Origin: a virus
Lineage: Duplodnaviria; Heunggongvirae; Uroviricota; Caudoviricetes
Length of the DNA stretch: 61,080 nucleotides
Strand: one strand, 5' to 3'
Virus record (IMG/VR): IMGVR_UViG_3300037067_005176
Coordinates: 1-61,080 of that record
The translations under genes were made by a program, and so were the position numbers. Below the pieces are notes generated by a model. It was not told the origin of the DNA. It worked only from the letters and a program-made list of their open reading frames with translations, and did not search any database. This document shows positions 32,224 through 41,701 of this stretch, piece after piece (position 1 is the stretch's first letter; every line of letters begins with the position of its first letter).

Positions 32224-32901
32224 TTAAATATAATTTTTTTCAATATCTTCTTGACGTTTGATATTTTCTTCATTTTTTGAGCAATAAAGATCAAAGAATA
32301 GTTCTTTATCAATTCCAAGCATTGCTCCCATCTTTACAAAGACTCCAATAGCACAATCAAAACACATCGATAATTCAGTTTGATTGATTTCGTAATCTTT
32401 ATAAGTTTTCCAATGTTTATATGGAAGATTGTTGATATATCGTCCAATCCAAAATGAAAGTTCAGACCAACCTTCGCCTATCGAATTGAATGTATATTCA
32501 GAGTCATAATCACCAATCTTTATATCGGTCGAATCTATACCTGTATAAAGAAACACATTCATCATAAAATGCCAAATATCAATAAATTCATACTGCATTT
32601 CAAGTTTTGCGGATTCAGTCATATTATGTTCAGGACCGTGAGTACAAAGAGCTCCTAAATATTTTTCTTCGGCATCAATCAATTCAAACCATTCAGTCGT
32701 TGCGGCACCCCAAAAATAAATTGCTTCTTTTGCACGATCAAAATCGGTCATCTCAGATTTTGGAAATTTGTTACCGCGTTTCTTTCCAACAAATTCTTGC
32801 AAAGAATTCTGCATTCCCAACATATAGTTAAGAGCATCTTCACGATATGGATAATGTTTAATTAAACTAGCGCAGGTGTTATCAGGATTGACAATTGTCA
32901 T
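32224..32901 (-). CDS. Dimeric dUTPase/dCTPase (T4 gp56-like)
   Basis: EWFELID, YEFIDIWHF, PYKHWK, KNEENIKRQ. Confidence 0.8.
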   Translation of the reverse strand: MTIVNPDNTCASLIKHYPYREDALNYMLGMQNSLQEFVGKKRGNKFPKSEMTDFDRAKEAIYFWGAATTEWFELIDAEEKYLGALCTHGPEHNMTESAKLEMQYEFIDIWHFMMNVFLYTGIDSTDIKIGDYDSEYTFNSIGEGWSELSFWIGRYINNLPYKHWKTYKDYEINQTELSMCFDCAIGVFVKMGAMLGIDKELFFDLYCSKNEENIKRQEDIEKNYI

Positions 32902-33645
32902 TTAACCTCCAATTACTTCGAACAAATTTCTTGACTTATAATAAACAGTTTCGTCGTTTACTATCTTATTCAACATATCAAAGTGTCTTTCATAAATATG
33001 CAATGAACCGCAATGTGTTGCGATTGTACCCATTTGCAAATCTGGGTAAGTTTCTTTCATTCTCAACAAAATTTCATGTTGAATAAAAACAAAGAAAGGT
33101 AAGTCGTTGCCTGCGCCAAAAACGAAATCTTGAGATCTCATATTCACTTGGCAATCAAGTTTTCCATTTCTTATAAAATATTGTGTAGACAACGTACAAA
33201 CGAAATCTTTGTTGTTTTCATATTTATGAAAAGGCTGGTTGAAGTTAATTACAGCTTGACGAGAATCTGCATCCTTCTTTAATGAATCGCAAACCCATTC
33301 AAACTGATTTCGTCCTTGCCATTTTTGTTTCCAAACATAAAAGCCGTAGTTCGAATTAATTTCACCATTTGGTCCAGCAATCTTTTCCCACATTGATGCA
33401 TGAGCTTTGATACCGTCAATAGTTAAGTCACCTTTCATATACCATTCAAGTTCTTTTTGCAAATATTTTTCAGATAGCTTACGATGTGGATTCGTCAAAA
33501 TACAAAAGTAAGGCTGCTCAACGATATATTTGCAACCAATAATTTCTTTTGTATGTTGTCCTCTTGGAGCATGCAATTCGCATATATCCAAAACATTACA
33601 AACTTTTTTAAATGTGCTATCAAAATCATATCCAGTAATTTCCAT
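32902..33645 (-). CDS. Thymidylate synthase-fold dCMP hydroxymethylase-like enzyme (T4 gp42-like)
   Basis: NSNYG, SRQA, KDFVCT, MRSQDFVFGAGND with Asp at the dCMP-specifying position, SLHIYERHF. Confidence 0.8.
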   Translation of the reverse strand: MEITGYDFDSTFKKVCNVLDICELHAPRGQHTKEIIGCKYIVEQPYFCILTNPHRKLSEKYLQKELEWYMKGDLTIDGIKAHASMWEKIAGPNGEINSNYGFYVWKQKWQGRNQFEWVCDSLKKDADSRQAVINFNQPFHKYENNKDFVCTLSTQYFIRNGKLDCQVNMRSQDFVFGAGNDLPFFVFIQHEILLRMKETYPDLQMGTIATHCGSLHIYERHFDMLNKIVNDETVYYKSRNLFEVIGG

Positions 33646-33725
33646 TTAAACCTCAAACTAAAAATCAAATTTAATAATTTTTTGTTCCAATTTCAATAAT
33701 TTTTTATAAAGTAAAAATTTTATAT

Positions 33726-34140
33726 TCACACTAACTCATTAAACTTATCTTCATTAATCAAATCAAGGAAATTTATTATTCTAAAATATTTTTGACTATC
33801 TTCATCAAACTTTACATAACGACTTAATGCTTGTCGATTTTTTAAGCTCGGTGATTGCTTCAATCTCATTCATAAAATCTCATTAAACTGATAATATTCA
33901 TAATCGAATCCTAGTTCTTGAAATATTTTTCTATCCATCTCTTTCCGAAATTCTAGGCACATTATTTCAATCAACTCGTCTCGAATATCAGATGAGCCCT
34001 GGAAGCGCTGTGTATATTTTGTTTTCAAGTTCATATTTTAATTGATTCAGAAGCAGTTTTTCAATATCAGTATTATGAAATACAGATAAATCTGCGGCTG
34101 CTTCTAAAGTCCATTTCGCATTAAGCTTTCGCGTCGTTGC
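33726..34140 (-). other. Three micro-ORFs/fragments, two resembling a gp23 capsid helix
   Basis: 33988-34140 ATTRKLNAKWTLEAAADLSVFHNTDIE; 33870-34034 DIRDELIEIMCLEFRKEMDRKI...FNEIL; 33726-33869 ...FNELV. Confidence 0.5.
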
Positions 34141-34774
34141 TTAGATTCTCGTTGCCGATATCATCAAACACCAAAGGAATTTGATCCTTGAATTCTGCAA
34201 GTAAAAGTTTCATCAAAGCTTGCATATCAGGATGTGCTTGTTTTGAAGTTCTCAATTTTAAAACATGACGCCATTCTCTCAAATTTGCAGTCATAACGAT
34301 TTCAGTCTTTGTGCAATTTGGAAGAACGCTTCTTGCATTTTCCGGTTTTACGCCATGAGCTAAAAGTTCAAAATAAATCTTTTCAGAATTTTCACATGAG
34401 TTTTTCCAAATTATATAATTATGAGACATTTCATCACACCAACGAGGTTTGATAAATGTAACATCGTTTCCAAATTTGTCTTGACTGTAATTGCAGTATC
34501 TTTGTGATTCCTGAGAATACGCGGCAATACGATGTCTAATTAATTCCATTGAAACTGCCCTATCAGTTATGAATCGAACCGATATTGAGTGGTGTTCTAA
34601 AACCGAATCATGTTTCTTAACATTGCAAATCATATTCACAAATGCTTTATGCGAATCGTCGGTTATTTTGCCTTCCGATTTATAGCATGTTCGCCCACAA
34701 AGCTCAATATGCTTTAGTATTTGTGTACCATCAATATTAGACATTATTTCATGAGATTGTGACAATATTTGCAT
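34121..34774 (-). CDS. thyX: Flavin-dependent thymidylate synthase
   Basis: GRTCYKS, HDSVLEH, RHRIAAYSQESQRY, ARSVLP, NLREWRH. Confidence 0.95.
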   Translation of the reverse strand: MQILSQSHEIMSNIDGTQILKHIELCGRTCYKSEGKITDDSHKAFVNMICNVKKHDSVLEHHSISVRFITDRAVSMELIRHRIAAYSQESQRYCNYSQDKFGNDVTFIKPRWCDEMSHNYIIWKNSCENSEKIYFELLAHGVKPENARSVLPNCTKTEIVMTANLREWRHVLKLRTSKQAHPDMQALMKLLLAEFKDQIPLVFDDIGNENLSNDAKA

Positions 34775-35020
34775 TCATTCCTCGCATTTACATTTATTAA
34801 GTTTTCTTCCATGAAAATAACCATTTGGTATTTGTTCGTTATTGACGTTTATAAATATACATTTATATCCGTTGTTATACCAAGATCTTTTACTTTCGAA
34901 CATAGGATTTTTATCACCGGTTCGTTTACCTATTCCAGATTCATTTATTATAACACTCTTTTTAGCAATGTTATCCCATGTTTGCGCGTGTTGAATTTTT
35001 AACTTTAATTTCTTTTGGTA
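34775..35020 (-). pseudogene. C-terminal remnant of a NUMOD3-type endonuclease
   Basis: Hand translation GKRTGDKNPMF...SWYNNG...IPNGYFHGRK. Confidence 0.55.
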
Positions 35021-35048
35021 TATACATGTAATTCCTTATAAATATTAT

Positions 35049-35354
35049 ATGTTTAAATGTGAGTTTCCAAATTGTGAATACACAACAAAATTTAGATCAA
35101 AGATAGATTTTCATCATGTAATTCCTAAAGAACTAAATAAAAATTCAAAATTGACAATATGTTTATGTAAAAATCATCATGCATTAATATTTCATCCTGA
35201 TTCAAAACACGGTCAACATTCAATAAAAACAAACGATTCTTTAATTATATTACATACATATAAATCCACAGTTGGCAAAGCTATACTGTATGAAGATATG
35301 AATAATAAAAGGTTCTTTTATTTTCCAGACACTAAAGAAATTTGTAATGATTAA
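35049..35354 (+). CDS. Small HNH endonuclease on the opposite strand
   Basis: CEFPNC, DFHHVIP, LCKNHH; TATAAATA at 35037-35044. Confidence 0.75.
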   Translation: MFKCEFPNCEYTTKFRSKIDFHHVIPKELNKNSKLTICLCKNHHALIFHPDSKHGQHSIKTNDSLIILHTYKSTVGKAILYEDMNNKRFFYFPDTKEICND

Positions 35355-35890
35355 ATTTGTTCCAATTCAATCTTTTTCATTCCAGCAGCTTCCTTTAAAA
35401 GGTCAAATCCGTCAGAACTTCTATCATATATGTGTTTATAATAAACCTTTTTAATTCCACTTTGAAGAATTAATTTTGCACAATTTGGGCAAGGTGTAAT
35501 AGTTATAAATATTGAAGCTCCTTCTGTTGAAATATTATTTTTAGCTGCAAAAGCCAAACAATTCTGTTCTGCGTGACATTCATACTTTTCGCTAAATTCA
35601 TGATGACGTTGCAAAAAGTCCATTTTTGTAACTTCAATGTTATCAATATAATACAACTTAGGTTCTTTATAATAAGATTCATCTTCCGCACAGACTTTTT
35701 CTTTAATAACAAAAATATCTTCGCAATGTTTAAATCCAGAAGGAACGCCATTCCAACCTGTACTAATTGTTCGTCCGTCTTTTACAATAATAGCAGCAAC
35801 TTTTACTCTAGCGCATGTCGAATTTTTTTCTAAAATTTCTAAATATTTTTTAAATGTATTTTTCAGTTTGGTGTTCATCATCCTATCCAT
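35351..35890 (-). CDS. dCMP deaminase
   Basis: STCARVKV, TGWNGVP, HAEQN, PCPNC. Confidence 0.95.
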   Translation of the reverse strand: MDRMMNTKLKNTFKKYLEILEKNSTCARVKVAAIIVKDGRTISTGWNGVPSGFKHCEDIFVIKEKVCAEDESYYKEPKLYYIDNIEVTKMDFLQRHHEFSEKYECHAEQNCLAFAAKNNISTEGASIFITITPCPNCAKLILQSGIKKVYYKHIYDRSSDGFDLLKEAAGMKKIELEQI

Positions 35891-36396
35891 TTTTTAAATT
35901 CATTAAATATTTCAATTTCATTTCTATATTGATTTCCATTATTGACTTTAAGAATTGACTTATTCTTAATATTTGACTTTCTGAATGCTTCAAAAAATAA
36001 ATCTTGTTCTCTATCCCTTGCGCTAAAATCAAACGACAATCCATCATCTTTCATTATTGAAAAATCATCAGTGCACAACAAAATTAATTTAGTATCTTCA
36101 AGTGCATCTGGATATAACTGTTCAATATCAAATATGAAATTTGGATCTGTCTTTCTATAAAGAGGACCATAAATATATTCACCTAAATGACAACGATCAA
36201 AGATTAAATTATTAAAACGATTATCCAAAAGTCTGAAACATTCCTTGAAAAACTTTTCTTGGTATTTCCCAGGATTCTCAATTCCTTTAGGAGGAGATGA
36301 ACAATGAATAATAGGATGAGGACCGTAATTCTTAAGAATATTGTTGATAAGAGTCGACTTTCCACACCTGTCCACGCCTTCGCATATAAGCTTCAT
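35878..36396 (-). CDS. Thymidylate kinase-like nucleotide kinase
   Basis: EGVDRCGKST, IFDRCHLGEYIYG. Confidence 0.85.
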   Translation of the reverse strand: MKLICEGVDRCGKSTLINNILKNYGPHPIIHCSSPPKGIENPGKYQEKFFKECFRLLDNRFNNLIFDRCHLGEYIYGPLYRKTDPNFIFDIEQLYPDALEDTKLILLCTDDFSIMKDDGLSFDFSARDREQDLFFEAFRKSNIKNKSILKVNNGNQYRNEIEIFNEFKKWIG

Positions 36397-37298
36397 AAAT
36401 ATCTCTCCTTAAACTTAACATCATATCTTTCAATGAATTTAATGTCACCAGTTTTATACAATGTTTTTATTTCGTCAGTTGTTATCTTTTTAATATCTTC
36501 TTCAGTAACAACTTTGAAATTTTTAAATAATTCTCTGGCTGCATTAAACTTACTTTTATTATCAATCGTATTAACCAAATGTTTTGGTTTAATTTCAACG
36601 ATTTCATCAGTTTCAAATATATAAAAATCCGGAAAATAATTACGTTCCATTCCTTCAAAATTTAAATATTTTACTGCATATTTCTTATGCTCGGCATGTT
36701 CAAACTTAATGTCATTATCAATTAAATAAACTAAATATGATAACTCTAAAAGGCTTCTAAAATAATACCCTTTATACCATCCACTCCATCCATTTCCTGA
36801 ACCCGTTGGAGAAGGTTTACCAAACATTGCATTTTTAGAACCTAATTGCGAAGATGATATTTTTGATTTCATTTCATCAGCTTTTTCTTTCCCATATCTT
36901 TCCTCAAATGTTCCAAATAGAGGTCTATCAGCAAAGCCTCTTGAATACTTACCACCAAAGTTTTTATTATTTTTGCCTGAAGATTTTAAAGATTGTATTT
37001 TCTTTATTTTCTTCGCTTTTTCGTCTCCAAATATTTCCTCAAAAGATTTGCCTTTCATCAAACGGATGGATGCTAATCCAGCATTCCTGCTCGCATTTAA
37101 CATTACACCGTTCTTATGCTTTTTCCTCATCTTACACGAACTACACAAATCAGCTTTATATTTTTCAAAACATATATTTCTATTTGACAAAACACTATCA
37201 TAAATTTTTTCGCACCCATCGCATTTAACATTTATTCTTTGAGAATTATCAAAACGATCAGGAAATTTTACTTGATATTTTAACTCTGTAATAATCAC
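36393..37298 (-). CDS. TnsA-like PD-(D/E)XK homing endonuclease
   Basis: GNGWSGWYK, FRSLLEL, YFPDF, VEIKP; likely GTG start at 37298 after SD GGAGG. Confidence 0.8.
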   Translation of the reverse strand: MIITELKYQVKFPDRFDNSQRINVKCDGCEKIYDSVLSNRNICFEKYKADLCSSCKMRKKHKNGVMLNASRNAGLASIRLMKGKSFEEIFGDEKAKKIKKIQSLKSSGKNNKNFGGKYSRGFADRPLFGTFEERYGKEKADEMKSKISSSQLGSKNAMFGKPSPTGSGNGWSGWYKGYYFRSLLELSYLVYLIDNDIKFEHAEHKKYAVKYLNFEGMERNYFPDFYIFETDEIVEIKPKHLVNTIDNKSKFNAARELFKNFKVVTEEDIKKITTDEIKTLYKTGDIKFIERYDVKFKERYL

Positions 37299-37338
37299 AA
37301 TGCCTCCAATTATATTGTTATTTATAATTGAAGGCATT
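37299..37338 (-). promoter_or_regulatory. SD-sequestering hairpin containing late promoter
   Basis: 16-bp stem AATGCCTTCAATTATA/TATAATTGGAGGCATT; TATAAATA 37319-37326. Confidence 0.7.
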
Positions 37339-37361
37339 GATAACTTAGGATTTAATTTTAT

Positions 37362-37513
37362 TTACTTAACGAATGATTTGAGCTTTGACTTCTTCCTTAT
37401 CACCCAAGCAGCTTTTAATTTTTGCTTAGTTTCATCGCTTACTTTAGTGCCAAGTCTAGCCATTCTCATCTTCAACCGGAAATAAGAAACGAATGACGAG
37501 TTCGCTGTCCCAC
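37362..37513 (-). pseudogene. Collapsed HEG: partial leader plus NUMOD3 fragment
   Basis: GGACAG-hairpin leader start; LGTKVSDETKQKLK...KLKSFVK*. Confidence 0.55.
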
Positions 37514-37519
37514 TTTATA

Positions 37520-38872
37520 TTATTTAATAAATGATTTTAACCGGCCTTCAGGTTTGCGTTTTTGTGAAACGGTCTTCCATGGATCCGTAAAAGAACACGA
37601 TGTAATCGTATGCTCTAAATCGCCATGCATATTATTTTGTAACATCAATATATCATTCATAGGAAAATCTAAATCCTTTACAAATCTAGAATCGTTATGT
37701 ACTATACCGTAAGCCCAACGAATATGATCAGCGCCTGTGCATATAGGCAATGATTGTGCTATATGATTAAAATTCTTCACAGGATCAATCAAACGGAATG
37801 TTGTTGGATAACCCATAAGACACATCAATTCACGAATTGTCAAATAACGATTATGCTTTGGATGTACAATACTAAATGCATTCTTAGAAACGATCGCGTT
37901 TGTACGTCCTTTTGCGAAAATTGGAGATGAATCCCAGAATCCTTTTCCGTCGGCAAGTTTAGCCAACATATATTCGGCTTTCTTTGCCATCTTTTCATAT
38001 TTTCCAAAGAAAGTTTTGTCCTTCTTGTACATTTCCAACCATACAGGCCATGAGGAAAATGATTTACTGTCGTTTTCAGTTTCCTGGGTAAGACTTCTCA
38101 TATATTTCCAAAGATCATGCATATTGATAAGATCTTCAAATTCAGTATTCCAATTTGTTCTCATAACAATGTGGTCATTTCCAGCATCAGGAGTTTCAAC
38201 GGTTGGAAAGTTAAATCCATCAAGCCATTCTTCAAGAGGAGGGGCTTTCTTTGAAATATTTTTGAACAACACATGCTTTGGTTTCTTGTAGAGATATGCA
38301 AAAGCCCTTGCGCGATTTTGAGGAATTCCATGCTGAGAAGTTGTAGTCTTTGTAAGATGGAACTTATATTCCTTATCAAGTCCATTGAACTTCAAGATTT
38401 CATTAATCTCATTCAATACCTTCAAGCCTTCAGCACCTAAAAGTCCTGGAGCATTTTCAAAACACAGAACGGTCGAACCTTGAGCGAGGAACCATTTTAC
38501 AGATTCATACATCCAACGATTTGCTGCGCTGTCGGCACCACGATTTCCTGCGTTTAACATGCTGAGGCCCGCACATGGAGGGATTGAAAGCTGAATATCT
38601 GAAGGAGCAATGTTTAATTCCTTTGCACAGGACTTGAATACGGTAATATCCTTTGAGTAAGGATCTGCAATGTGTTGTTTAACACCTTCGTGAAGTTCAT
38701 CCAAATATTTGAACTGAATATCAGGAAAATTCTTTACAAGATGTGCTTCATGGTTCTTAAAAGGTGACAAACTTAGAAAATGGTCAACCTTGATATTCAA
38801 TTCCTTTTCAACAGAACGGCGTGCAAGTTCCCATGGACCGATTAACGAAATAAAATGCGTAACTGTAGACAT
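37520..38872 (-). CDS. DNA cytosine-C5 methyltransferase-like protein
   Basis: PPCAGLS (IV), FENAP (VI), PQNRAR (VIII), RYLTIRELMCLMGYP (IX); motif I divergent. Confidence 0.8.
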   Translation of the reverse strand: MSTVTHFISLIGPWELARRSVEKELNIKVDHFLSLSPFKNHEAHLVKNFPDIQFKYLDELHEGVKQHIADPYSKDITVFKSCAKELNIAPSDIQLSIPPCAGLSMLNAGNRGADSAANRWMYESVKWFLAQGSTVLCFENAPGLLGAEGLKVLNEINEILKFNGLDKEYKFHLTKTTTSQHGIPQNRARAFAYLYKKPKHVLFKNISKKAPPLEEWLDGFNFPTVETPDAGNDHIVMRTNWNTEFEDLINMHDLWKYMRSLTQETENDSKSFSSWPVWLEMYKKDKTFFGKYEKMAKKAEYMLAKLADGKGFWDSSPIFAKGRTNAIVSKNAFSIVHPKHNRYLTIRELMCLMGYPTTFRLIDPVKNFNHIAQSLPICTGADHIRWAYGIVHNDSRFVKDLDFPMNDILMLQNNMHGDLEHTITSCSFTDPWKTVSQKRKPEGRLKSFIK

Positions 38873-38881
38873 AATTCAACC

Positions 38882-40237
38882 TCATTTTTTAATAAATTTT
38901 CCTAGACCAATTGCTTTTGGTGCGTCAACTTTAACAGTTCCGAATTGGAGGTTTAAATTTGAATCTTTACAGACTTTGTTTAAAACTCTAGGAAGGAAAT
39001 TTCCACTGACAGCTTCAACTAACAACAGATTTTGAAGATCTTTGACTAATTTAATTCTTTCTTCATTATATTTATTGAGGAAATTTATCTTCTTGTACAT
39101 GTCTTCCGGAGAAGCAACTCGAAGAAAATGGTCCTTTGCAATAAGATCGCAATTGATGTCATAATCAGGATGGAAGAAAGGTACAACACCTGAAAGAAGC
39201 ATTTCTAAATATTTGTATGATGCCCATTTCTTTCTCAATGGAATAACCAAAGTATATTTTGTATTTTCAAAAATCTTTGGAAGTTCTGTATGAGCGACTA
39301 AACCTTTGAACTGAGAATAACCTTTTGAATACTGTTCATCCCATCTTCCATATACTGAAAACTTTTGTTCTTTATCAACATCAAGAACCCATTTCTTCAA
39401 TTCAGTATAACGATAATCCTTTTTGCTATTTTCCGAAGAGGCTTGCATTGCAACGATTGCGAATTCATTAGTTCTTTCATTTGAAGGATCGGAAATTTTC
39501 TTTTTGAATGCATTAACCTTTTCAATTTCTGCGTACTTAAAGTCGATCTTTTCAATAATGTAATCCATTTGCTTTGTTGTTAAATCTGGACGATATTCTT
39601 TGATATATTTCCAATCCAATGTTTGTTCGCATTGCGCAAGAATTGCTTTAGGTAATCTAAACACATCATAAAGTATTCCCATTTTTTCTTCGCCAGTCCA
39701 ACGAGGGTCCGGAATCATTACAAAATATGGTGTAGTCGTTGAATTGATATATTCCGAAATAGGTGATGCATAATTAAAACCCATTTCAAGAGAAACATTT
39801 GGAGTTCCGTGCCTTGTAAACTTTGTATTAGGTACACACCAATTTGCAGCGCCTTGAGAAAGATAAATCAAATTAAGGTCAATATCTGGGTGATTTTCAG
39901 TAACCCACTTTTTCATTTCATGAATACAATGAAATTGAGCTTCTGCGCGATTCTTAAATGAATCAACATCAATCTTTTTATACATTTGTCCAGGCTTTAC
40001 AATATGAGCAGTCGCATCAATTATTTTTCCTTTAGGATCAAATGCAGCTCTCTCTTGTGGAGTCAACTTCGAATAATTTGAAGAACTCAAAAGAACAACG
40101 TTTTTAATGTTTTCAATTGATAAAAGAATCTTCAAGTAATAATAATAGTCAGCAGAGCCGTTTGTATGCTTAATGCTTTCTTTATCTAATGTCAATGCGG
40201 AACCCCAAGCTCCAAATCCAATTTTTAAATCATCCAT
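38882..40237 (-). CDS. GT-B glycosyltransferase resembling T4 DNA beta-glucosyltransferase
   Basis: DPR, VYGRW, FKG, TLVI...KYLEMLLSGVVPFFHPDYD; located in the DNA modification cluster. Confidence 0.7.
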   Translation of the reverse strand: MDDLKIGFGAWGSALTLDKESIKHTNGSADYYYYLKILLSIENIKNVVLLSSSNYSKLTPQERAAFDPKGKIIDATAHIVKPGQMYKKIDVDSFKNRAEAQFHCIHEMKKWVTENHPDIDLNLIYLSQGAANWCVPNTKFTRHGTPNVSLEMGFNYASPISEYINSTTTPYFVMIPDPRWTGEEKMGILYDVFRLPKAILAQCEQTLDWKYIKEYRPDLTTKQMDYIIEKIDFKYAEIEKVNAFKKKISDPSNERTNEFAIVAMQASSENSKKDYRYTELKKWVLDVDKEQKFSVYGRWDEQYSKGYSQFKGLVAHTELPKIFENTKYTLVIPLRKKWASYKYLEMLLSGVVPFFHPDYDINCDLIAKDHFLRVASPEDMYKKINFLNKYNEERIKLVKDLQNLLLVEAVSGNFLPRVLNKVCKDSNLNLQFGTVKVDAPKAIGLGKFIKK

Positions 40238-40688
40238 TTTTTACCTCTACGGACTTTATAACACGATCTCTTAAATCGGATGAACTAAAAGTATGTGTTC
40301 TCTTGTTGTAATAAACTTCGATGCCTTCAATGTCGGAGCCTGTATGAGGCTTTCCTTTATATTCTTCACCAACGAAACGAATATCTGGCATGATTATATG
40401 CAACATATCGTTAAGATCTTTTTCGGAATCAAACGGAACAACCATATCAACGAAAACACATGAACTAACTTGAATCCAACGTTCCAATGTTGATTGAACT
40501 GGCTTATTCTTTTCAGGTCTTGAAATAGTTGGATCTGTTAAAAGACCAACGACAAGGAAATCGCATTTTGATTTTGCTTCAGCTAACATTGCCATGTGAC
40601 CTGCGTGAGGTCCTAATTCAAATGTGCTTGCGGTAAATCCAATTTTCTTTCCTTGTGATTTCATTTGCAAAATTGTACTTAAATTCAT
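40230..40688 (-). CDS. Cytidylyltransferase (TagD-like)
   Basis: GFTASTF, HAGH, LVVGL, KNKPVQ, ER, RTHTFSSS. Confidence 0.85.
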   Translation of the reverse strand: MNLSTILQMKSQGKKIGFTASTFELGPHAGHMAMLAEAKSKCDFLVVGLLTDPTISRPEKNKPVQSTLERWIQVSSCVFVDMVVPFDSEKDLNDMLHIIMPDIRFVGEEYKGKPHTGSDIEGIEVYYNKRTHTFSSSDLRDRVIKSVEVKNG

Positions 40689-41701
40689 AACACCTCAATC
40701 AATTTTTCAATTTCTTCAACAACTCGAACTTTTAATTCGTCTGAACTATACTTATATATGCGAATCCATTGAGTGAGTTCAACAATACTTAAGTAAGGCA
40801 TATAATCTTCGTACATTCTGGAAATTATTTTATGTTCTTCCATCATGTTGTAACGACGAAGAGAATGTAACAACTTACCTACATCCAAAATCCAACTTGA
40901 ATAAAGTCCATCAACATGAATAGGATCAATCATATAGACTTTTCCGTTCTTTGCAATCAAGTTATCAATTGAAAAATCACCATGACTGAAAGAGGAATAA
41001 GAATCAAAATCGCATTCTTGATTTTTCAGCATTCTTATAACGAATTTCTTTTTTGTTTTGTCAATTGGAATCCCTTTTAAATGATCCTCAACTCTTTTAA
41101 TATAAGTACTGAATGGATTAACTGTTGTTGGGATACATTTCATTCTGTTGATGATCGAAATGACATCGAAGATACATACATCAGAATCTTTCTCAATGTA
41201 TTCCATACAAAGTGTATTTCCAATTAATGAATGAATTTTTGGAGTATTAAAATATTTCGATGCCGTACGATACCAAGCAGTTGCATCAATTGAGTTTTCT
41301 GCATTCTTATAAACTTTATCATTTCGTTTTTCAATGAACGCACCACTCATTCCACCTTTGAGAATCTTTATGTCAAGATTGGTAAAATCTTCAGGAGTTA
41401 TTCCTTTGTCATCAATGTAATATGCAGCAAGAATCTTATTGAATGAAAGACTGTGATACTTCGCTCCGTGTTTTTCAAACCATGCTTTAATTCCTGGTGC
41501 AAACTTTTCTTCAGCTTCTTCTCGGCTTTTGCAAGATAATGATCCACGAGCTGTTACAAAATTAATTTCCCAACCTTCATCATATAACTTATTTAACTTG
41601 TTGATAAGTTCAATGTTTGGAGTTGCGTTTTCCCAGTCACGGTTTGTAGTGAATGAAATAGTATCATCAATATCAACAACTATTCTTTTAAAATGATCCA
41701 T
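40685..41701 (-). CDS. HAD phosphatase fused to APH/choline kinase-like domain
   Basis: VDIDDTI, TARG, YYIDDK; GGMSGA, HGDFSIDN, IDP. Confidence 0.8.
   Translation of the reverse strand: MDHFKRIVVDIDDTISFTTNRDWENATPNIELINKLNKLYDEGWEINFVTARGSLSCKSREEAEEKFAPGIKAWFEKHGAKYHSLSFNKILAAYYIDDKGITPEDFTNLDIKILKGGMSGAFIEKRNDKVYKNAENSIDATAWYRTASKYFNTPKIHSLIGNTLCMEYIEKDSDVCIFDVISIINRMKCIPTTVNPFSTYIKRVEDHLKGIPIDKTKKKFVIRMLKNQECDFDSYSSFSHGDFSIDNLIAKNGKVYMIDPIHVDGLYSSWILDVGKLLHSLRRYNMMEEHKIISRMYEDYMPYLSIVELTQWIRIYKYSSDELKVRVVEEIEKLIEVL

Follow-up and report, generated by a model that had tools for sequence, protein, structure and literature searches.

A gene cluster at positions 32224-41701 of the viral contig IMGVR_UViG_3300037067_005176 probably encodes a two-part cytosine hypermodification system of an uncultured T4-like phage. 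T4-type enzymes would make 5-hydroxymethylcytosine (5hmC) at the precursor stage, and a phage-made sugar donor and a GT-B glycosyltransferase would glycosylate it in DNA. The strategy itself is known. What is new here is that a T4-type precursor pathway is joined to a donor and transferase kit of the type described for contig 53 (Pyle, Lund, O'Toole and Saleh; subclass III), which comprises a bifunctional HAD-APH enzyme, a cytidylyltransferase and a GT-B DNA glycosyltransferase (bioRxiv 10.1101/2023.12.21.572611). In E. coli, all three of those enzymes had to be present for the 449- and 641-Da products to form, which were assigned as mono- and di-heptosyl-5-methylcytosine (5-HepmC and di-Hep), and the 5hmC in that work was supplied after replication by a C5-methyltransferase and a TET (5mYOX) dioxygenase (bioRxiv 10.1101/2023.12.21.572611).

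The window analyzed, that is, the whole stretch of 61,080 nucleotides, covers the first 61 kb of an IMG/VR virus contig of 189,080 bp, which has 33% G+C and is estimated to be 69% complete. Every gene of the cluster lies on the minus strand, among T4-type replication genes (clamp loader, sliding clamp, ribonucleotide reductase, primase, single-strand binding protein and a split DNA polymerase), and within the early replication block rather than the late structural block. No cultured T4-like phage has a DNA polymerase more than about 30% identical to the one encoded here, and we therefore consider this phage a deep-branching, uncultured relative. A megablast comparison of the 9.5-kb region with cultured phages gave no match. 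An earlier prediction for this window (hereafter the original prediction) had named eight genes in the cluster. All eight are present, with significant family matches; two further genes in the span, for a methyltransferase-like protein and an endonuclease, were missing from its list. The identities, active-site signatures and folds of the proteins and the conserved synteny of their genes are established in the sections that follow.

The thymidylate synthase homolog carries the signature of a dCMP hydroxymethylase

The thymidylate synthase (TS) homolog (32902-33645, minus strand) is the gene that would determine which base is made. Its best solved relative is the deoxycytidine monophosphate (dCMP) hydroxymethylase of T4 (PDB 1b49; 2.7e-33, 118 bits), whereas the CMP hydroxymethylase MilA and ThyA score far lower (about 69 bits or less). 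The aspartate of its GAGND motif, which had been read as the residue specifying dCMP, does align with T4 Asp179.

A 2026 paper reported that the TS homologs of phages RB69 and DLP3, long considered hydroxymethylases, make 5-hydroxy-dCMP (PMC13326640). In that study, Asn at the position of E. coli ThyA D169 is proposed as diagnostic of 5-hydroxy-dCMP synthases, while cytosine specificity is marked by Asp at the N177 position and a non-methyl product by an acidic residue at L143 (PMC13326640). In our alignment, the window protein reads DFVC (with the catalytic Cys), RSQD and GAGND, and has Asp at the L143, N177 and D169 positions. The corresponding motifs are DFMC, RSND and FRND in T4 gp42, and EYPC, RSQN and MQLD in RB69 gp48. 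All four residues that mark a dCMP hydroxymethylase (the catalytic Cys, Asp at N177, an acidic residue at L143 and Asp at D169) are therefore present in the window protein, and its RSQD motif lacks the Asn of a 5-hydroxy-dCMP synthase. The pattern RSxD-x7-D was found in 30 of 30 TS homologs from related loci that carry the GT-B gene. Because D169 is kept, 5hmC is expected rather than 5-hydroxycytosine (5hoC). Judged by these residues, the window enzyme is predicted to make 5-hydroxymethyl-dCMP, and an RB69-type 5hoC product was rejected.

Three overlapping genes for a putative sugar donor and a glycosyltransferase

Three consecutive overlapping genes at 38882-41701 belong to the families TIGR01689, TIGR02199 and PF13524. 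The gene for the HAD-kinase overlaps that for the nucleotidyltransferase by 4 nt, and the latter overlaps the GT-B gene by 8 nt.

The HAD-kinase gene (40685-41701, minus strand; TIGR01689, 7.4e-14) is predicted to encode an AfhF-like HAD sugar-bisphosphate phosphatase (residues ~1-112) fused to a sugar kinase of the APH/choline-kinase fold (residues ~113-338). Its N-terminal 110 residues match PDB 9iqw over residues 5-109 (2e-12, 33% identity) and 1xpj at 3.4e-10. According to the fold search, 9iqw is AfhF, the D-arabinose 1,5-diphosphate phosphatase of phage HY126, and RB69 gp51 used as a query retrieves the same open reading frame (ORF) at 7e-15. The structural model of the fusion (predicted local distance difference test, pLDDT, 90.9) matches APH(2''), APH(3'), LicA and fructosamine-3-kinase as well as 9iqw. 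Across 27 fusion homologs, the DxD and DD motifs of the HAD domain and the kinase lysine, HGDxxxxN and IDP motifs are invariant. No similarity between the kinase domain and the RB69 AfhE kinase was detectable. The original prediction had recognized this phosphatase-kinase fusion correctly but gave its HAD domain no role; that role is key, as a homolog of AfhF would remove the distal phosphate of a sugar 1,ω-bisphosphate.

The second gene (40230-40688, minus strand) encodes an HxGH nucleotidyltransferase of the cytidylyltransferase superfamily (PF01467, 4.5e-7; phrog_7878, 3.5e-29), predicted to act on a sugar 1-phosphate. It carries the motifs PHAGH and RTHTFSSS and matches TagD structures at about 1e-6. 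The TagD model TIGR01518 scores 44 bits (2.1e-11) against an equivalog cut-off of 165.4, and TIGR02199 (rfaE_dom_II, the heptose-1-phosphate adenylyltransferase domain of HldE) scores 65 bits (5.1e-18) against a cut-off of 181.5. As judged from these scores, TagD motifs without an equivalog score indicate superfamily membership only. The original prediction had proposed a sugar or polyol linked to cytidine diphosphate (CDP) as donor; its CDP and polyol parts came from the TagD name only and are not supported, since the HldE domain outscores TagD and sugar transferases are what the transferase model resembles.

The third gene (38882-40237, minus strand; PF13524, 4.8e-6) encodes a GT-B glycosyltransferase, a candidate DNA (5hmC) glycosyltransferase. 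In a Foldseek search of the PDB, the best match of its model (pLDDT 84.8, predicted template modeling score 0.86) was T4 beta-glucosyltransferase (1qkj; E 1.2e-9, template modeling (TM) score 0.58-0.65 by target, 12% identity), in agreement with its earlier description as resembling that enzyme. The second match was BshA (3mbo); other GT4-like enzymes and T4 alpha-glucosyltransferase were also listed. When the T4 beta- and alpha-glucosyltransferases were used as phmmer queries, neither matched anything in the contig. The modeled likeness to T4 beta-glucosyltransferase (GT63) is one of fold, which does not in itself show family membership.

Searches of the 189-kb contig found no SIS domain, isomerase, epimerase or U32 protein, and the RB69 AfhE halves, arabinose isomerase and U32 protein as queries (including gp55, gp52 and gp53) gave no match; the U32 peptidase and arabinose isomerase that the original prediction could not see in the window were therefore not found in the whole contig either, at its estimated completeness of 69%. 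Since no isomerase is encoded in this sequence, the sugar substrate must come from the host. The AfhE profile matched only a HAD_2-NTP_transferase fusion at ~127 kb, outside the window. A whole-genome family scan with PF00483 gave no match there, yet hmmscan finds an NTP_transferase domain at this position (2.6e-10). Because the scan had missed a real domain, all claims of absence were tested again by searching six-frame translations directly with phmmer and hmmsearch.

Gene neighborhoods of the predicted donor module

The gene-neighborhood survey that had been suggested as a check was carried out on 88 loci: 80 from IMG/VR, retrieved with a profile of the fusion protein, seven from assemblies and cultured phages, and the window. 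The profile was required because, in single-sequence scans of IMG/VR, the glycosyltransferase query had no match and the HAD-kinase query found one locus. ORFs were clustered without prior labels. The biggest clusters were the fusion (84 of 88 loci), the nucleotidyltransferase (80), the GT-B protein (48), the TS homolog (43), the methyltransferase-like protein (39) and dCMP deaminase (36). A non-redundant set (n = 32) was defined by identity below 90% and at least 4 kb of flanking sequence on both sides.

The nucleotidyltransferase gene is paired with the fusion gene in 31 of the 32 non-redundant loci, and the commonest context is that of the window, with GT-B, methyltransferase-like and TS genes (8/32). 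Sixteen non-redundant loci have the GT-B gene and flanking sequence, and a cytosine-specific TS homolog is found in 13 of them. Gene order is fixed in a long series of T4-like contigs, running TS homolog, deaminase, fusion, nucleotidyltransferase, GT-B, methyltransferase-like protein, exonuclease and clamp. Together with the precedent of the contig 53 trio, the presence of the TS-linked trio in many phage contigs supports the earlier proposal that the phage makes its own activated donor and modifies cytosine with something other than glucose. In 21 loci, an unannotated ORF of 308 aa splits the cassette between the fusion and nucleotidyltransferase genes.

Other contexts among the 32 loci were a TET dioxygenase with a TET-associated transferase (five loci), a 5-hydroxymethyldeoxyuridine (5-hmdU) DNA kinase (five) and DUF4422 (two, with Glf as well in L004). 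The contig-53-like combination of GT-B, methyltransferase and TET genes occurs once. As the fusion and the nucleotidyltransferase stay paired across these varied contexts, we regard them as a portable donor module. In the tree of fusion proteins, the window sequence falls in a supported clade (97/93) of mostly TS-linked loci that also includes two DUF4422 loci.

Carriers of these genes include cultured phages. In the Agathobaculum phages AB434P2 and AB434P3, which have a Gram-positive host, the order is HAD-kinase, nucleotidyltransferase, glycosyltransferase and TS. The GT-B and methyltransferase-like pair is also found with Afh-type donor genes, in loci L009 and L010 and in Pseudoalteromonas phage vB_Psh_XG4 (L097; PP712099.1:100-6580, an unannotated record). 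The latter encodes, in this order, a TS homolog with the hydroxymethyl signature, an AfhF-like HAD protein, an AfhE-like fusion, a GT-B protein of the same family as that of the window, a 368-aa ORF and a methyltransferase-like protein that shares the clade of its counterpart in the window. An epimerase encoded in L001 was considered as a heptose 6-epimerase, but its best score was to generic GalE, which is not diagnostic.

Several further arrangements were seen in the surveyed loci. The donor pair adjoins a 5-hmdU DNA kinase (PF18723) and an unannotated protein of ~468 aa in L020, L040, L057, L061, L070, L074, L076 and L078, which suggests that the module also serves thymidine hypermodification pathways. 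In L024, L028, L030, L031, L035-L037 and L093 it follows genes for a TET/JBP dioxygenase and a TET-associated glycosyltransferase. A ParB-like protein is encoded ahead of the TET gene in six of these eight loci (L028, L030, L035-L037 and L024), and these ParB-TET loci resemble the ParB-dependent T-dioxygenase clusters reported in 2026. The related phage glycosylation cluster of L010 contains a gene resembling the RuBisCO large subunit (L010:3872-5101) as well as several genes for sugar methyltransferase-like proteins.

The methyltransferase-like gene and the endonuclease

The gene that begins 9 nt past the end of the GT-B gene (37520-38872, minus strand) encodes a C5-cytosine methyltransferase-like protein (PF00145, 4.7e-17; 62.9 bits against a cut-off of 22) of a virus-specific clade, one of several virus-specific clusters of C5-methylase-domain proteins. 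Motifs IV (PCAGLS), VI (FENAPG) and VIII (PQNRARAF) are kept. Motif I reads SLIGPW in the window and PLIGG in its clade, compared with the canonical FxGxGG and with FFAGGGG in the TET-linked relative L049. A profile of the clade aligns with M.HhaI only from motif IV onward (motifs IV-X), and an ESM Atlas model superposes on whole C5-methyltransferases (TM score 0.66-0.77, residues 1-436).

Of the 16 non-redundant GT-B loci, eight have the methyltransferase-like gene adjacent to the GT-B gene and 11 have it within 3 kb, although it is missing from L002 and L008, which hold the closest relatives of the window glycosyltransferase. The protein is thus a frequent partner of the GT-B family, and it is given no step in the mechanism proposed below. 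A Pfam scan, phmmer searches seeded with four phage TET proteins and a ten-member TET profile found no TET gene in the contig, at its estimated completeness of 69%, and a post-replicative methyltransferase/TET route in the window phage was rejected.

The next gene in the span (36393-37337, minus strand) encodes a DUF7487/TnsA-like endonuclease (weak matches to PF24308 and PF08722; phrog_15427, 4.4e-8). DUF7487 genes lie at other positions in relatives such as L008, and the endonuclease gene is probably a mobile insertion and not part of the pathway. A 17-bp stem at 37298-37339 (minus strand) that holds TATAAATA spans the start region of this gene and may occlude its start codon.

Other nucleotide genes and features of the genome

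Four more genes of the cluster, all on the minus strand, have predicted functions in nucleotide metabolism. The product of 32224-32901 is an all-alpha nucleoside triphosphate (NTP) pyrophosphatase of the dimeric dUTPase/MazG type (PF08761, 3.5e-10; phrog_173, 9e-17), a candidate dCTPase/dUTPase analogous to T4 gp56; it was the sole match in the genome to a T4 gp56 query (1.2e-7; pairwise E 1e-7). ThyX, the flavin-dependent thymidylate synthase, is encoded at 34121-34774 (PF02511, 6.7e-47; phrog_85, 1e-49), with a predicted role in dTMP supply. The dCMP deaminase at 35351-35890 (PF00383, 7.9e-21; phrog_174, 1.7e-46), which would supply ThyX with dUMP, has its gene next to that of the TS homolog in 36 of the 88 loci surveyed. 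A thymidylate-kinase-like nucleoside monophosphate (NMP) kinase (35878-36396; phrog_761, 1.6e-10) is a candidate 5-hydroxymethyl-dCMP kinase. It is 36% identical to the kinase that adjoins the TS homolog in L001, and members of its cluster lie beside or near the TS homolog in eight loci (L001, L002, L006, L008, L009, L010, L018 and L088). This kinase is not of the T4 gp1 type, and no gp1 homolog was found anywhere in the contig.

The late-promoter motif TATAAATA does not occur before the donor genes. Promoter-like and terminator-like sites were no commoner than in shuffled sequence, and no significant promoter signal was found upstream of the donor genes. A putative gene on the plus strand, an ORF of 101 aa without family matches (35037-35354), lies between the genes for ThyX and dCMP deaminase, and TATAAATA stops 5 nt upstream of its ATG.

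The same phage has a second sugar cluster outside the window, at ~124,455-129,930 of the contig (locus L095:5455-10930). It encodes three GT-A-type glycosyltransferases, a radical SAM/SPASM protein and a 460-aa protein in which a phosphomutase-like HAD_2 domain is fused to an NTP_transferase domain. This cluster may add second sugars to DNA, or it may act on virion proteins or on the host envelope.

Proposed pathway and alternatives

In the pathway that we propose, the NTP pyrophosphatase would clear dCTP and dUTP, and the TS homolog would convert dCMP to 5-hydroxymethyl-dCMP before replication. The thymidylate-kinase-like kinase and the host nucleoside diphosphate (NDP) kinase would then raise this product to the triphosphate, which the phage polymerase would incorporate, while dCMP deaminase and ThyX would maintain the dTTP supply. 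For the donor, the kinase domain of the fusion would phosphorylate C1 of a host sugar ω-phosphate, most likely D-glycero-D-manno-heptose 7-phosphate; the AfhF-like HAD domain fused to it would strip the distal phosphate, and the nucleotidyltransferase would produce an NDP-sugar. The GT-B protein would finally place the sugar on the hydroxyl of 5hmC in DNA. T4 gp42 chemistry, the AfhF reaction and the three-enzyme requirement for heptosyl-5hmC (the last in bioRxiv 10.1101/2023.12.21.572611) have been established for homologs; for the window phage we infer each enzymatic step, the sugar, the nucleotide and the full replacement of cytosine.

Several points weigh against this proposal. The product is predicted from genes, both for the window phage and for its whole clade, and homology to the contig 53 trio is deduced from the shared architecture and families. 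In the fusion tree, TET-linked GT-B loci make up a clade of their own (100/100), and identity between the window proteins and those of contig-53-like TET-linked GT-B loci is ~40% (fusion), 55% (nucleotidyltransferase) and 28-30% (GT-B protein). Some of the nearest HAD-kinase relatives have Glf/DUF4422 in place of the GT-B protein. The characterized enzyme closest to the HAD domain uses a pentose bisphosphate rather than a heptose, the sugar substrate of the pathway has to be supplied by the host, and heptose 7-phosphate may be unavailable in the Gram-positive host of one cultured carrier. In addition, a C5-methyltransferase-like gene makes little sense in a phage in which every C5 is already substituted.

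Heptose is accordingly the single likeliest sugar but is not established. We place it a little short of an even chance because of the clade split, the low identities, the Afh-type donors found with the same GT-B pair, the Gram-positive host and the lack of an isomerase or epimerase. The same pathway logic could operate with a pentose (arabinose or ribose, from host 5-phosphates) or a hexose, giving pentosyl- or hexosyl-oxymethylcytosine, an outcome that we consider rather unlikely but worth keeping in mind. The relationship of the HAD domain to the arabinose-1,5-bisphosphate phosphatase AfhF points this way, as do the three loci with Afh-type donor genes, the separation of the window HAD-kinase clade from the contig-53-like TET-linked loci and the Gram-positive Agathobaculum host. 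However, heptose is the only experimental result for this architecture, and it was obtained in E. coli, where arabinose 5-phosphate is also present. The best-scoring domain for the nucleotidyltransferase is that of heptose-1-phosphate adenylyltransferase, the kinase domain does not detectably resemble the RB69 AfhE kinase, and the contig has no isomerase, all of which argue for heptose over a pentose or hexose. Heptosyl-5hmC and its gene kit have already been described, which weakens the earlier suggestion that the modification might be undescribed. An undescribed modified cytosine could still result if the methyltransferase-like protein, which has a non-canonical motif I and occurs in phages whose C5 is already blocked by a hydroxymethyl group, were not a methyltransferase here but used Cys attack at C6 on 5hmC or glycosyl-5hmC, for example in base flipping for the transferase or in exchange of the C5 substituent, together with a phage-made sugar that may not be heptose in this clade; we regard this as conceivable but doubtful.

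The remaining alternatives concern the acceptor, the base and the linkage. Acceptors in the GT-B fold class are mostly not DNA, and BshA, MshA and trehalose-6-phosphate synthase are among the matches of the window model. The genome has a second sugar cluster at ~124-130 kb, and in 6 of the 32 non-redundant loci no base-modifying gene lies within 6 kb of the donor pair. The glycosyltransferase and donor module could thus act on a virion protein or the host envelope, the nucleotide genes nearby being incidental. We consider this improbable, as the best fold match is T4 beta-glucosyltransferase, a trio of like architecture modifies DNA in E. coli, 13 of the 16 non-redundant GT-B loci have a cytosine-specific TS homolog and 11 have the methyltransferase-like gene at 3 kb or less, and the cluster sits in an early replication block without an upstream TATAAATA rather than among late structural genes. 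Alternatively, the TS homolog might make 5-hydroxy-dCMP, as in RB69 and DLP3, so that the sugar would be ether-linked to C5 as a glycosyl-5-hydroxycytosine. The enzymes of those phages do make 5hoC despite hydroxymethylase-like N177D and L143D/E residues (PMC13326640), and the 5hoC arabinosylation pathway includes a phosphatase to which the HAD domain is related. The diagnostic D169N is nevertheless absent (RSQD, as in T4-type enzymes, compared with RSQN in RB69 gp48), T4 gp42 outscores MilA and ThyA by 118 bits to ~69 or less, and no U32 or arabinose isomerase genes were found in the contig, which makes this product quite unlikely. A true TagD-like enzyme might make a CDP-polyol from which a TagF-like GT-B-fold protein would transfer polyol phosphate, leaving a phosphodiester-linked modification. 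The nucleotidyltransferase is a member of the TagD/ECT superfamily (PF01467), with TagD structures at ~1e-6, and TagF-type polyol-phosphate transferases also have a GT-B-like fold. Yet the TagD model reaches 44 bits against a cut-off of 165 while rfaE_dom_II reaches 65, the fusion of a kinase with a bisphosphate phosphatase suits synthesis of a sugar 1-phosphate and not of a polyol phosphate, no TagF structure is among the listed GT-B fold matches, and the contig 53 products have glycoside rather than phosphodiester masses (bioRxiv 10.1101/2023.12.21.572611). On these four grounds CDP-polyol transfer was rejected, and we give it the least chance of the readings considered.

Comparison with known systems

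The proposed system of 5hmC synthesis followed by glycosylation from a phage-made donor would combine two published mechanisms, each of them so far studied on its own: pre-replication synthesis of 5hmC of the T4 type, and a self-made NDP-sugar kit tested only with 5hmC made by methyltransferase and TET. The donor pair looks portable, as the DNA-modification gene sets that it accompanies are of at least four kinds, and the core of GT-B and methyltransferase-like proteins takes either this donor module or an Afh-type one. Phage base modifications determine susceptibility to restriction, CRISPR and glycosylase defenses, and they are a source of DNA-labelling enzymes. Direct chemistry could use the cultured Agathobaculum phages AB434P2 and AB434P3, or Pseudoalteromonas phage vB_Psh_XG4, which is tractable for the GT-B and methyltransferase-like pair.

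The cluster resembles the T-even 5hmC system in its dCTPase, dCMP hydroxymethylase signature, NMP kinase and dCMP deaminase, and in a GT-B model closest to T4 beta-glucosyltransferase. Unlike T-even phages, which use host UDP-glucose, the window phage is predicted to make its own donor. Its NMP kinase is thymidylate-kinase-like and not gp1-like, ThyX stands in place of Td, the window has an extra methyltransferase-like gene, and the contig has no sequence-level homolog of the alpha- or beta-glucosyltransferase.

For the donor, the Afh and bacterial ADP-heptose pathways share a common logic: a C1 phosphate is added to a sugar ω-phosphate, a HAD enzyme removes the distal phosphate, and an NDP-sugar is formed. 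The window cluster follows the reaction order of the ADP-heptose pathway (GmhA, HldE or HldA and HldC, GmhB, HldD), and its nucleotidyltransferase is related to HldE domain II. It differs from that pathway in that the kinase has an APH/protein-kinase-like fold and not a ribokinase fold, distal phosphate removal falls to a phosphatase of the 1xpj/AfhF type in place of GmhB, neither GmhA nor HldD is encoded, and all scores are far below equivalog cut-offs. The arabinosyl-5-hydroxycytosine (Afh) pathway of RB69 and DLP3 (PMC13326640) has a homolog of the window HAD domain in AfhF (33%, 2e-12) and likewise runs from an anomeric kinase through distal phosphate removal and nucleotidyl transfer to a GT-B enzyme acting on DNA. 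In contrast to that pathway, the window cluster has no arabinose-5-phosphate isomerase, U32 protein or AfhE-type NTP_transferase-kinase fusion; its kinase is fused to the phosphatase and not to the nucleotidyltransferase, which is of another fold class (HxGH), and its TS homolog keeps D169.

The closest parallel is contig 53. The authors of that study found GT-B contigs linked more often to thymidylate synthase homologs than to TET, with APH, methyltransferase, dCMP deaminase and clamp genes as neighbors (bioRxiv 10.1101/2023.12.21.572611). As TS-linked GT-B contigs are listed there, the general class was already catalogued. The window differs from contig 53 in having a T4-type precursor pathway where contig 53 obtains 5hmC from methyltransferase and TET. 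One surveyed GT-B protein, that of L033, has 429 aa, the length reported for GT53, which is not evidence of identity. The two systems share the same three-gene architecture and the families TIGR01689 and CTP_transf_like/TIGR02199, and the best structural matches of GT53, as of the window GT-B protein, are T4 beta-glucosyltransferase and BshA. As for contig 53, an NDP-sugar is predicted to be made in the window phage from a host sugar phosphate by the phage's own enzymes.

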